Position numbers and translations under genes: made by a program
Source: Salinivirgaceae bacterium
GTDB taxonomy: Bacteria; Bacteroidota; Bacteroidia; Bacteroidales; SZUA-534
Assembly: GCA_017474765.1 (NCBI GenBank)
Contig: JAFVGW010000034.1
Coordinates: 217,694 to 281,693, forward strand
Length of the DNA: 64,000 nucleotides
Direction: 5' to 3'
Shown here: positions 33,510-36,173 of the stretch, in pieces
Position numbering within the stretch: position 1 is the stretch's first letter
Layout: each line of letters starts with the position of its first letter
The notes under the pieces: model-generated
What the model saw: the letters and a program-made list of their open reading frames with translations, nothing else
The model's database searches: none
Told to the model about the DNA's origin: nothing

Positions 33510-33522
33510 GCACACAACACAC

Positions 33523-33553
33523 AAAAAAAAACGGAACCTCGCGGCTCCGTTTC
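33523..33553 (-). terminator. terminator after trpB2
   Basis: The minus strand reads AACGGA-GCCGCGAGGT-TCCGTT followed by a T run (T9). Confidence 0.55.
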
Positions 33554-33579
33554 TTTGACAATCAACGTTTTATAATCGA

Positions 33580-34944
33580 TTAAATAATCTTCTCAAGTTT
33601 CGATACGTTGCGGTCAATATCCTCTTGCGGCAACTCGAAGTTGGTCAGGTCGCCGGCCAGATACTGGTCGTAAGCGGTCATATCGATGAGTCCGTGTCCC
33701 GAAAGGTTGAACAGAATGGTCTTCTGCTTGCCTTCCTCCTTGCACTTGTTGGCCTCGCGGATGGTTGCTGCGATTGCGTGCGCCGACTCAGGTGCAGGAA
33801 TGATGCCCTCAACCTGTGCAAACAACGTTGCAGCCTGGAATGACTCAAGTTGCGGAATATCAACACCTTTCATCATACCGTCTTTAAGCAGCTGGCTGAC
33901 AATGGTTCCGGCGCCGTGGTAGCGCAAACCGCCTGCGTGAATGTGAGCCGGTGCAAAATCGTGACCCAGAGTGAACATCGGCAGCAGCGGTGTATAGCCG
34001 GCTTCGTCGCCGAAATCGTACTGGAACACGCCGCGCGTCAGTTTCGGGCACGATGAAGGTTCGGCGGCAATAAACTCTGTATTCTTGCCATCGACAAGGT
34101 TGTGGCGCATAAATGGGAACGAAATTCCACTGAAGTTCGAGCCACCACCGAAGCAGCCAATCACCATATCGGGATACTCGCCTGCCATAGCCATCTGTTT
34201 TTCGGCCTCAAGACCGATAACTGTCTGATGCAGAGAAACGTGGTTCAGAACGCTGCCGAGCACATATTTGCAGTTCGGGGTTTGCATTGCAAGTTCAACA
34301 GCCTCCGAGATGGCCGTTCCAAGGCTTCCTTGATAAGTCGGGTTGGCGGTCAGAATGTTCTTGCCTGCGCGTGTGCCCATCGAAGGAGATGCAATTACCT
34401 GTGCACCATAGGTTTGCATAATCAGTCGGCGGTATGGTTTCTGGTTGTAGCTCACCTTCACCATAAACACTGCCAAATCGAGTCCGAAGACTTTGGCGGC
34501 GTACGACAGAGCTGCTCCCCACTGACCTGCGCCAGTCTCGGTGGTGATGTTGGTCACGCCTTCCTTTTTGCAGTAGTAAGCCTGCGCCAGAGCCGAATTC
34601 AGCTTGTGCGAACCCACAGGGCTGACACTCTCGTTCTTGAAGTAGATGTGCGCAGGTGTGTCGAGTGCTTTCTCAAGGCCGTAAGCGCGCACCAGCGGTG
34701 TCGAACGGTAGTTTTTGTACTGATTGCGGACCTCTTCCGGAATGTCAATCCAGCGGTCGGTGGTGTTCAGTTCCTGCTCCGAGCAGGCGCGGTTGAACAG
34801 TCCCGACATCTCGTCAACCGTGAGCGGCTTGTGAGTCTGCGGGTTGAGCATCGGCAGCGGCTTGTTTTTCATATCGGCCACAATGTTGTACCATTGAGTT
34901 GGTATCTCGTTCTCCGTCAGGAAGAACCTCTTTTGTTTTTCCAT
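33580..34944 (-). CDS. trpB2: TrpB2-type tryptophan synthase beta subunit (stand-alone)
   Basis: 454 aa. The N-terminus IPTQWYNIVADMKNKPLPMLNPQT is characteristic of TrpB2. The PLP Lys lies in SPVGSHKLNSA, and ETGAGQWGAALSYA is present. Confidence 0.9.
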   Translation of the reverse strand: MEKQKRFFLTENEIPTQWYNIVADMKNKPLPMLNPQTHKPLTVDEMSGLFNRACSEQELNTTDRWIDIPEEVRNQYKNYRSTPLVRAYGLEKALDTPAHIYFKNESVSPVGSHKLNSALAQAYYCKKEGVTNITTETGAGQWGAALSYAAKVFGLDLAVFMVKVSYNQKPYRRLIMQTYGAQVIASPSMGTRAGKNILTANPTYQGSLGTAISEAVELAMQTPNCKYVLGSVLNHVSLHQTVIGLEAEKQMAMAGEYPDMVIGCFGGGSNFSGISFPFMRHNLVDGKNTEFIAAEPSSCPKLTRGVFQYDFGDEAGYTPLLPMFTLGHDFAPAHIHAGGLRYHGAGTIVSQLLKDGMMKGVDIPQLESFQAATLFAQVEGIIPAPESAHAIAATIREANKCKEEGKQKTILFNLSGHGLIDMTAYDQYLAGDLTNFELPQEDIDRNVSKLEKII

Positions 34945-34990
34945 TTTTTGATAGTTTTTAATTGATGTTTAAATGTTCATTCAGAATATT

Positions 34991-35021
34991 AAAAAAGCCC
35001 GCAAGTGGAGTGCTTACGGGC
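34991..35021 (-). terminator. attenuator terminator in the trpB2 leader
   Basis: The minus strand reads GCCCGUAAG-CACUCCA-CUUGCGGGC (9-bp stem including one G-U) followed by UUUUUU. It lies 46 nt upstream of the trpB2 ATG. Confidence 0.75.
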
Positions 35022-35046
35022 TTAAATCTTACAACAAACCGACGGG

Positions 35047-35112
35047 CTAATCCTCCACTTTAATTTCGGACTGGCGCCACCACCACTGTTTGCTGTTCAA
35101 ATTGTTTACCAT
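35047..35112 (-). CDS. Trp leader peptide MVNNLNSKQWWWRQSEIKVED (21 aa, three tandem Trp codons)
   Basis: My own reading gives ATG at 35112-35110, TGG TGG TGG at 35085-35077 and TAG at 35049-47. The last codons AAGUGGAG (35060-35053) are perfectly complementary to CUCCACUU (35010-35003) inside the terminator. Confidence 0.7.
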   Translation of the reverse strand: MVNNLNSKQWWWRQSEIKVED

Positions 35113-35251
35113 TTTGTTTTTATTAACGCAACGAAATAAATGTTTTTTAGCGAAAGTGCAAAACGTTTTTTCAGCGGATACGAGATTTGCGCACATTAGG
35201 TGTCGTAGGACTGTGAATACAGCGCTTGCTTGAAAACAATTATCGCAATAA

Positions 35252-35587
35252 CTATCTGGAATTCATACCTTCATCGTTAACATATACTGCGCTATCGGCA
35301 AACGATGGAGCCTCGAGCATGCCAGCCGCCTCAACAGCCGGAGCCGAATTGTCAGAGTCGCTACCAGCCACCTGCTGCTGAATGTCGCCACTTGTACTAA
35401 GCAAAAACACACTAAATCCAACCAGCAGAGCCACCGAAGCAGCCACTAACCAAAATCGACGATTATTGTGGCGACGCGTTGCCAAACTGTCGCTAATCTG
35501 TTGCCACACAAATTCAGGAGCAGCTACCTCGCTATCCTGCACCCCTTTGCGGAAAATCTTGTCAATGTTTTTTATACTCATAACCAT
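35252..35587 (-). CDS. putative anti-sigma factor (single-pass membrane protein)
   Basis: 111 aa with one central TM (FWLVAASVALLVGFSVFLL). It lies 13 nt downstream of the ECF sigma gene. Confidence 0.5.
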   Translation of the reverse strand: MVMSIKNIDKIFRKGVQDSEVAAPEFVWQQISDSLATRRHNNRRFWLVAASVALLVGFSVFLLSTSGDIQQQVAGSDSDNSAPAVEAAGMLEAPSFADSAVYVNDEGMNSR

Positions 35588-35600
35588 CTAACTTAATCAT

Positions 35601-36173
35601 CTACTTACTCAATAATCTTACATCTTGCCGGCGCTGTCCATAAAGAGCCTCAACCTTCTCCTGCAAAATGCACCTTGCCCGCGACAAGTTCGATTTCGAC
35701 GTACTCTCCGTGATTCCAAGCATCTGACCTATCTCCTGATGTGAGTAACCTTCAATAGCATAAAGGTTGAACACCATCCGATATTGAGGAGTCAACGCCT
35801 GCACCATCTGCATCAGTTCGCTGGCCGAAATCTCACTCAGCACATCATCGACCACCAAATGGGTGTCGTAGTCGGCAATCTCGCTCACACTATAGAGCAA
35901 GTTCTGCTTACGGTAACGCTCGAGCGCGCAATTCACAACCACGCGGCGAACCCAGCCTTCGAAAGAGCCTTTAAAATCGAAAAGGCCGATTTTTGTAAAA
36001 ACCCTCAGGAACCCGTCTTGAAGGATATCCTCGGCTTCGGTGCGGTCTTTGGCGTATCGCAGACACACTGCGAACATCTTCGACGACAGCAAATTATAGA
36101 CTTTCTGCTGCGCATCGGGCCGATTTTTTTTACATAATCTGACCAGCTCGTCCCAATCAATAGTACCAGTCAT
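35601..36173 (-). CDS. RNA polymerase ECF-type sigma-70 factor
   Basis: 190 aa with region 2 (AEDILQDGFLRVF..., VVNCALERYRK) and the region 4 HTH (GYSHQEIGQMLGITESTSKSNLSRAR). Confidence 0.85.
   Translation of the reverse strand: MTGTIDWDELVRLCKKNRPDAQQKVYNLLSSKMFAVCLRYAKDRTEAEDILQDGFLRVFTKIGLFDFKGSFEGWVRRVVVNCALERYRKQNLLYSVSEIADYDTHLVVDDVLSEISASELMQMVQALTPQYRMVFNLYAIEGYSHQEIGQMLGITESTSKSNLSRARCILQEKVEALYGQRRQDVRLLSK

Follow-up and report, generated by a model that had tools for sequence, protein, structure and literature searches.

Leader-peptide attenuation is a textbook mechanism of gene control, and predictions of tryptophan (Trp) leaders in Bacteroidota go back to 2004-2010. In this phylum, the Bacteroid-trp family (Rfam RF01692) is a predicted cis-regulatory leader with a Trp-codon open reading frame (ORF) upstream of tryptophan biosynthesis genes (PMC2864571), and it has been invoked for Flavobacterium psychrophilum (PMC6414381). 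Actinobacterial leaders with two or three UGG codons also control second units, namely trpB2A in Corynebacterium diphtheriae and trpS2 in Streptomyces avermitilis (PMC1262725). The trpB motif (RF04312) of Firmicutes and Fusobacteria is found mostly upstream of ABC transporters and sometimes of trpB, and its authors could not exclude a classical attenuator (PMC11109978). Here, we describe a 64,000-nucleotide (nt) stretch of the genome of a Salinivirgaceae bacterium (GCA_017474765.1, contig JAFVGW010000034.1; hereafter the window, to which all plain positions refer) in which a short ORF with three consecutive Trp codons and a terminator hairpin precede trpB2, the gene of a stand-alone TrpB-like enzyme, on the minus strand. 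The element is very probably a functional, ribosome-mediated, Trp-sensing leader-peptide transcription attenuator of a monocistronic trpB2. Our literature search, which left two older key works uncovered so that a prior mention is possible, returned no description of a Trp leader on a Bacteroidales trpB2.

The original prediction had placed at this locus a leader ORF with three TGG codons, a hairpin followed by six U residues, and a trpB2 start codon a short distance further on, and our reading of the window bore out the coordinates of all of them. The leader ORF, MVNNLNSKQWWWRQSEIKVED, runs over 21 codons from ATG at 35112 to TAG at 35049-35047. The terminator stem-loop, consisting of AAGCCCGUAAG and CUUGCGGGCUU around the loop CACUCCA (35023-34995) and leading into a T6 tract at 34996-34991, was found by a terminator scan and is also present in the minimum-energy and centroid folds. 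The ATG of trpB2 (34944) follows 46 nt beyond the U-tract. The complementarity claimed between the late leader codons and the loop and 3' arm of the terminator is perfect over its 8 nt: the octamer AAGUGGAG (35060-35053) matches CUCCACUU (35010-35003) without a single mispair. A longer leader ORF of 49 codons was considered, starting from an in-frame ATG at 35196 (extension 35196-35113). This start codon lies upstream of a promoter-like block conserved with the more distant locus L014 and is not common to L014, and the 21-codon reading is therefore preferred. Transcripts that include the ATG at 35196 may exist, with two RNA contigs extending to 35182-35195.

Refolding of the leader RNA revealed an alternative structure that is more extensive than the 8-base-pair (bp) helix first noted. 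In the absence of a ribosome, a 1:2 hairpin pairs the Trp-codon region (35096-35068) with the stop and post-stop region (35053-35031). Equilibrium folding with ribosome masks was of no use as a switch test, always returning the 1:2 hairpin together with the terminator, and the antiterminator appeared only when truncated transcripts were folded in the order of transcription. In these stepwise folds a mask covered the RNA as far as ~13 nt beyond the Trp codon occupying the A site, and the transcript ended at 35003-35000. For a ribosome placed at W10 or W12, the lowest-energy fold was an antiterminator of ~19 bp (-14.8 to -15.6 kcal/mol), in which AAGUGGAG (35060-35053) pairs with CUCCACUU (35010-35003), UUA (35050-35048) with UAA (35016-35014), CG (35044-35043) with CG (35018-35017) and GGUUUG (35040-35035) with UAAGCC (35024-35019). 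With the ribosome at the stop codon and the corresponding region masked, the terminator alone formed (-16.7 to -17.0 kcal/mol) and met no competitor. The antiterminator ties up the entire 5' arm of the terminator together with its loop and the initial bases of its 3' arm, and the terminator fold overtakes it in stability once GCGGGC is added. The two structures would be sterically incompatible, because the 3' strand of the antiterminator lies no more than 1 nt from the 3' arm of the terminator.

The stepwise folds agree, at the computational level, with the logic originally put forward, in which stalling at the Trp codons gives read-through and arrival at the stop codon gives termination, and from them we infer the following switch. 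Transcription would begin at the leader promoter and a ribosome would translate the 21-codon leader. With ample Trp-tRNA, translation would proceed to the UAG at 35049-35047 and the footprint of the ribosome would cover AAGUGGAG, UUA and the CG/GGUUUG strands, leaving the terminator at 35023-34991 unopposed, and RNA polymerase would halt before trpB2. When Trp-tRNA is scarce, the ribosome would stall on the three UGG codons (35085-35077) with its 3' edge ~13 nt further on, and the RNA from 35060 onwards would be free; CUCCACUU emerging from the polymerase would then be captured in the ~19-bp antiterminator, with read-through into trpB2 as the predicted outcome. If the leader were not translated, the 1:2 hairpin (35096-35031) would form and termination would be the default. 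The same signal is predicted to act on the trpBEGDCFA operon through a paralogous leader, which would place TrpB2 in a Trp-starvation regulon, where its role would most plausibly be the conversion of free indole into tryptophan. The features on which this model is built are compiled in the table.

Table. Features of the trpB2 attenuator locus and of the second Trp leader in the same genome (PLP, pyridoxal phosphate)
Feature	Position	Strand	Basis and remarks
Putative Bacteroidetes-type promoter	35132..35162	-	TTTG at 35162-35159 as candidate -33 element; degenerate -7-like AACATTTA at 35144-35137
Leader ORF MVNNLNSKQWWWRQSEIKVED with TAG stop	35047..35112	-	Sequence; peptide identical in L004-L006
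Three UGG (Trp) codons, proposed sensing site	35077..35085	-	Sequence; WW/WWW/WWWW/WRW at the matching place in relatives
1:2 hairpin, ~-22 kcal/mol	35031..35096	-	Minimum-energy and centroid folds; forms without a ribosome on the leader
Antiterminator, ~19 bp, four stacked helices	35003..35060	-	Transcription-order masked folding
Intrinsic terminator (attenuator)	34991..35023	-	11-bp stem, 7-nt loop, U6; -16.5 kcal/mol
trpB2, stand-alone TrpB-like PLP enzyme, 454 aa, regulated gene	33580..34944	-	NF009057, TIGR01415, Pfam PALP
trpB2 transcript terminator	33525..33556	-	14-bp stem and T-run
Paralogous WWW leader MNTFFGNGNWWWRLQIQICE	C55:37253-37380 (L003:9254-9380)	+	Directly upstream of trpBEGDCFA

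Conservation of the leader was followed at two distances. Over the 122 nt that begin with the leader ATG and finish with the U-tract, the window shows 100% identity to the trpB2 loci L004, L005 and L006, where trpB2 itself has 94, 95 and 90% nucleotide identity and the third codon positions have 84, 88 and 74%, respectively. At the rate of the coding sequence, the probability of finding no difference in the leader is 2.5e-6 for L006, and, judged from these alignments, purifying selection acts more strongly on the leader than on the coding sequence. Variation among the four loci is seen in the promoter region and in the 46-nt spacer that follows the terminator. L014 encodes the orthologous leader peptide MNNMNNRQWWWRQSDIQVED and retains both octamers, and compensatory and half-compensatory changes are seen in both the terminator and the 1:2 stem: in the terminator stem one pair has changed from G-C to A-U (compensatory) and another from U.G to C-G, and of five substitutions in the 1:2 stem four preserve pairing.

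On the wider scale, we compared 80 TrpB2 loci (one genome per species, 75-99% protein identity, all Bacteroidales-like), which together with the window gave a set of 81. A Trp-rich short ORF (WW, WWW, WWWW or WRW) followed by a terminator-like hairpin is found upstream of trpB2 at 27 of them (26 and the window). The carriers include the cultured Alistipes hominis, Prevotellaceae, Bacteroidaceae, Paludibacter and a Tannerella-like metagenome-assembled genome (MAG), and the distance from leader to trpB2 is typically 95-190 nt, reaching ~310 nt at one locus. On the TrpB2 tree the leader trait requires 8-14 changes, and 15 of the 20 members of the well-supported clade that holds the window have a leader. 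The leader sequences are very different among loci, while their geometry is constant. For 17 non-redundant leaders, the terminator was searched for helices with the segment between the edges of the stalled and the terminating ribosome, using dinucleotide shuffles as reference. The best contiguous helix starts 8-22 nt past the last Trp codon in all 17 and 15-22 nt past it in 15, is mostly directed at the terminator loop and the arm next to it, and has a combined Fisher p of 2.4e-6. An earlier measure, the RNAduplex energy of the whole region against mononucleotide shuffles, did not discriminate, as GC-rich terminators pair with almost anything, and the contiguous-helix test was used instead.

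Two further observations were made in the comparison set. The motif WWR(x)S that follows the Trp codons in the window (35077-35068) recurs in L037, in L056 and in L076, the locus of A. hominis, and the leader of L037 ends in ...NWWRTSGI, close to the ...GWWRTS of E. coli TrpL; convergence forced by pairing and deep common ancestry could each account for the recurrence. L008 and L013, close relatives without the leader, have tandem hairpins of the form AAAATCTGCGGTTTGCATTCCGCA(A/G)TTTTTT, and also repeated TTTGTCGGAAATCGCAAAATGTTT units, 100-170 nt upstream of trpB2.

The window corresponds to contig C26 of a 3.63-Mb, 98%-complete assembly; among public genomes, MAGs of rumen Bacteroidales that carry the label Salinivirgaceae come closest to it. 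The canonical tryptophan operon of this genome, trpB-E-G-D-C-F-A, is located on contig C55 and has directly upstream of it a WWW leader of the same layout as that of trpB2. Its terminator consists of AGCCCGUCGU-ACUC-ACGACGGGCU followed by U7, the final codons of this leader, UUGUGAGUA, can pair with UACUCACGA at the terminator apex (GUGAGUA/UACUCAC), and a -7 box, CACATTTG, begins 27 nt before the leader ATG. The design is thus that of the trpB2 leader, with a different complementary pair. A scan of the 3.63 Mb for short ATG-initiated ORFs with WW and a strong terminator within 130 nt gave four matches, two of which lie outside larger genes and are the trpB2 and trp-operon leaders; the other two, on C39 and C51, were rejected, being inside the 3' ends of larger genes. 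Neither TRAP (PF02081) nor TrpR (PF01371) was found in the 98%-complete genome with searches that detected them in control genomes, and the trpB2 leader region has no T-box or any other Rfam family at threshold. Apart from the Trp leaders, contig C3 (14901-14960, minus strand) encodes a valine-rich leader peptide, MKNLVNIVISLVVVVVVCG, with a canonical -7 box, TACATTTG, upstream and a terminator, GAGCCCTTCC...GGACGGGCTTTTTT, downstream, followed after ~100 nt by a 601-aa ORF resembling ilvD (dihydroxy-acid dehydratase). Together these parts probably form an attenuator responsive to branched-chain amino acids.

The controlled gene falls within tryptophan synthesis, the pathway of the amino acid that is sensed. 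The encoded protein scores 695 bits with the TrpB2 model NF009057 (cut-off 366) and 600 bits with TIGR01415 (cut-off 519), and 149.5 bits with the canonical TrpB model TIGR00263, below the cut-off of 392. Since trpB2 has its own terminator and a convergent downstream neighbour, it is monocistronic. The view that the target is a solitary TrpB2 and not a trp operon is upheld by both lines of evidence. A TrpB2 homologue of Bacteroides thetaiotaomicron rescues an E. coli trpA mutant via cross-fed indole, and Thermotoga TrpB2 has a sub-micromolar Km for indole (PMC11535334). Tryptophanase was not found in the window genome with a search that detected it in control genomes. Given the lack of tryptophanase, the co-regulation with the trp operon and the B. 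thetaiotaomicron data, the most economical reading is that trpB2 is induced under Trp starvation for the capture of indole.

The most serious competing explanation accepts the attenuator and concerns only the task of the enzyme. TrpB2 may instead capture indole that leaks from TrpA/TrpB1, or use O-phosphoserine under serine limitation. We regard this as possible but a good deal less probable than not. TrpB2 enzymes reportedly prefer O-phospho-L-serine, a finding attributed to Busch et al. in 2014, and co-regulation with trpBEGDCFA fits both roles equally; capture of indole leaking from the organism's own pathway accounts for the data equally well. On the other side, in a genome where tryptophanase was not found, indole beyond pathway leakage must come from neighbouring organisms.

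A dedicated promoter for the leader is suggested by sequence. A promoter-like block sits 20-50 nt upstream of the leader ORF, where ATTTATTTCG (35141-35132) is conserved with L014, L004, L005 and L006 and overlaps the -7-like AACATTTA (35144-35137), a box with two mismatches. Most related leaders have a canonical -7 box (TAnnTTTG) beginning 21-32 nt ahead of the ATG, as expected of short leader transcripts with a promoter of their own, and the window transcript would start at ~35125-35130, about 15-20 nt before the ATG. In rumen metatranscriptome assemblies, trpB2 of 95-97% identical strains is present, i.e. transcribed. The contigs X2, X4, X9 and X11 run unbroken from the leader across the terminator, and X2, X9 and X11 reach the trpB2 coding sequence, showing that the leader and trpB2 are co-transcribed.

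Upstream of the leader lie, on the minus strand, a gene for a 190-aa extracytoplasmic function (ECF)-type sigma factor (35601-36173) and then a 111-aa ORF (35252-35587), which has no Pfam or NCBIfam match and, by its position, could encode an anti-sigma factor. The hairpin at 35023-34991 might be imagined as the terminator of this upstream operon or as a stand-alone insulator, with the WWW ORF arising by chance and the trpB2 promoter located downstream. The arrangement lends this some plausibility, as there is no other terminator between the stop of the upstream ORF (35252) and the leader, four other metatranscriptome contigs end at 34972-34981, just past the U-tract, and a weak -7-like sequence, TAATATTC (34991-34984), overlaps the U-tract. 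We nevertheless consider this explanation very improbable. The leader and terminator stay with trpB2 where the upstream genes differ (L004, L005, L014 and X2), WW/WWW leaders recur before trpB2 at 27 of the 81 loci as well as before the trp operon, no base of the 122-nt leader differs in L004-L006, and X2, X4, X9 and X11 cross the terminator. The ends at 34972-34981 coincide with a hot spot of strain variation in the spacer (34971-34987), where L005 and L006 also differ; because X11 has five substitutions and one deletion there, these ends are likeliest assembly breaks at a polymorphic stretch, not a second start site. The TAATATTC sequence would put a start near 34977 and may be a minor internal promoter.

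Less probable still is Trp-responsive control through a trans-acting, TRAP-like factor or riboswitch ligand binding with the ORF untranslated: leader translation is itself an inference and the RF04312 riboswitch candidate gives a sub-threshold match of 25 bits, but that match comprises essentially the terminator alone, falls far under the gathering score of 59 and belongs to a family of Firmicutes and Fusobacteria, the genome is without TRAP or TrpR, start codons lie at a fixed short distance from -7 boxes, and divergent leaders have in common the Trp codons repeated in frame and their constant spacing from the antiterminator strand, rather than a shared fold or sequence.

Several points weigh against a ribosome-controlled attenuator and temper our confidence in it. 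At 54 of the 81 loci, including those of Parabacteroides and Tannerella forsythia, trpB2 has no such ORF within 600 nt, and Trp-leader control of trpB2 is not universal. The -7 box of the window itself is degenerate. The metatranscriptome material consists of assembled contigs, which cannot reveal 3' ends or premature termination, and the two contigs that reach upstream to 35182-35195 may reflect read-through from the ECF-sigma operon or DNA carry-over. Taken alone, the 8-bp helix of the window is not significant against dinucleotide shuffles (p = 0.08). When the leader is untranslated, AAGUGGAG lies mostly in the apical loop of the 1:2 hairpin and not in its stem, and exclusion of the antiterminator is consequently only partial. 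Finally, the terminator is at equilibrium always more stable than the antiterminator, whatever is masked, and the switch must therefore be kinetic, with the antiterminator as a kinetic trap, as in E. coli.

The edges of homology among close relatives delimit a compact unit. Homology to L004 and L005 begins at ~35195, a position at which the metatranscriptome contig X2 likewise diverges, and homology to L004 stops at 33518. The promoter-leader-trpB2-terminator unit of ~1.68 kb is 93% conserved with L004, where both flanks are unrelated; L005 shares the downstream side only and L006 shares both flanks, being the only one with the ECF sigma and 111-aa ORF pair in common. Promoter, leader, gene and terminator thus hold together as a single unit in differing surroundings, and the different neighbourhoods in close species may reflect relocation or transfer of a self-contained cassette. 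We give about even weight to the broader proposal that such a cassette has been kept or re-invented many times in the Bacteroidales, and that TrpB2 is dedicated to the starvation-induced capture of indole from neighbouring gut or rumen microbes. If true, this would provide regulatory evidence settling the long-debated role of stand-alone TrpB2 and would define a class of Trp leaders missed by current RNA-family models.

The mechanism itself is not new, and the novelty lies in its target, as stand-alone trpB2 has not previously been catalogued as one. In about one third of the sampled Bacteroidales, trpB2 is under the same predicted tRNA-Trp signal as the biosynthetic operon, and this shared signal is regulatory evidence for a part of TrpB2 in tryptophan supply, probably via indole, in the indole-rich gut and rumen. 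The curated Rfam model is blind to the trpB2 leaders, and attenuation in the Bacteroidales is consequently under-reported in annotation. The divergent leaders offer natural covariation data as well as a cultured host, A. hominis, for ribosome-mediated attenuation in a phylum without Shine-Dalgarno-driven initiation.

Computationally, the locus combines the parts of a trp-type attenuator: a tandem-codon ORF near the 5' end, an intervening terminator, a switchable antiterminator and a gene of the pathway. With RF04312 it has in common a cis-regulatory hairpin and terminator, and identity with that family was rejected on the grounds given above. The secondary-target attenuators of Actinobacteria are similar in placing a Trp leader on a unit besides the main trp operon; they belong to another phylum, however, and the 'trpB2' of those reports is a second trpB copy accompanied by trpA and not a member of the TrpB2 family. 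RF01692 is the nearest of the catalogued families, being a leader of the Bacteroidota with a Trp-codon ORF before a tryptophan gene, and it is the best Rfam match of the C55 trp-operon leader (31.1 bits, below the gathering score of 49). The trpB2 leader has no RF01692 match at E<=10, and all 20 trpB2 leaders scored against the model stay below its gathering score. The 21 matches of the family in 301 Bacteroidota genomes all precede trpE or trpB1 and none precedes trpB2; RF01692 thus differs in being associated with canonical trp operon genes, whereas the element of the window precedes a solitary trpB2.

The E. coli trpL leader (RF00513) is the closest mechanistic counterpart. Its model scores 22.9 bits on the trpB2 leader (E = 0.019 in a 361-nt search, below the gathering score of 41) and aligns UGGUGGCGC...UCC and the terminator in both leaders of the genome (22.9 and 24.1 bits). 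Both systems have tandem UGG codons followed by an Arg codon (...GWWRTS in E. coli and ...QWWWRQS in the window), and both have a 1:2 hairpin, an antiterminator and a terminator with a U-tract, with the antiterminator as the weaker structure and kinetic control. The two come from different phyla, and the window leader is without a Shine-Dalgarno sequence and without a TrpR layer. In the window, the 3' strand of the antiterminator comprises the loop of the terminator and the beginning of its 3' arm, and a second helix engages its 5' arm, whereas E. coli uses the 5' arm alone, and the gene that is placed under control is a lone trpB2 in the window and an operon in E. coli.

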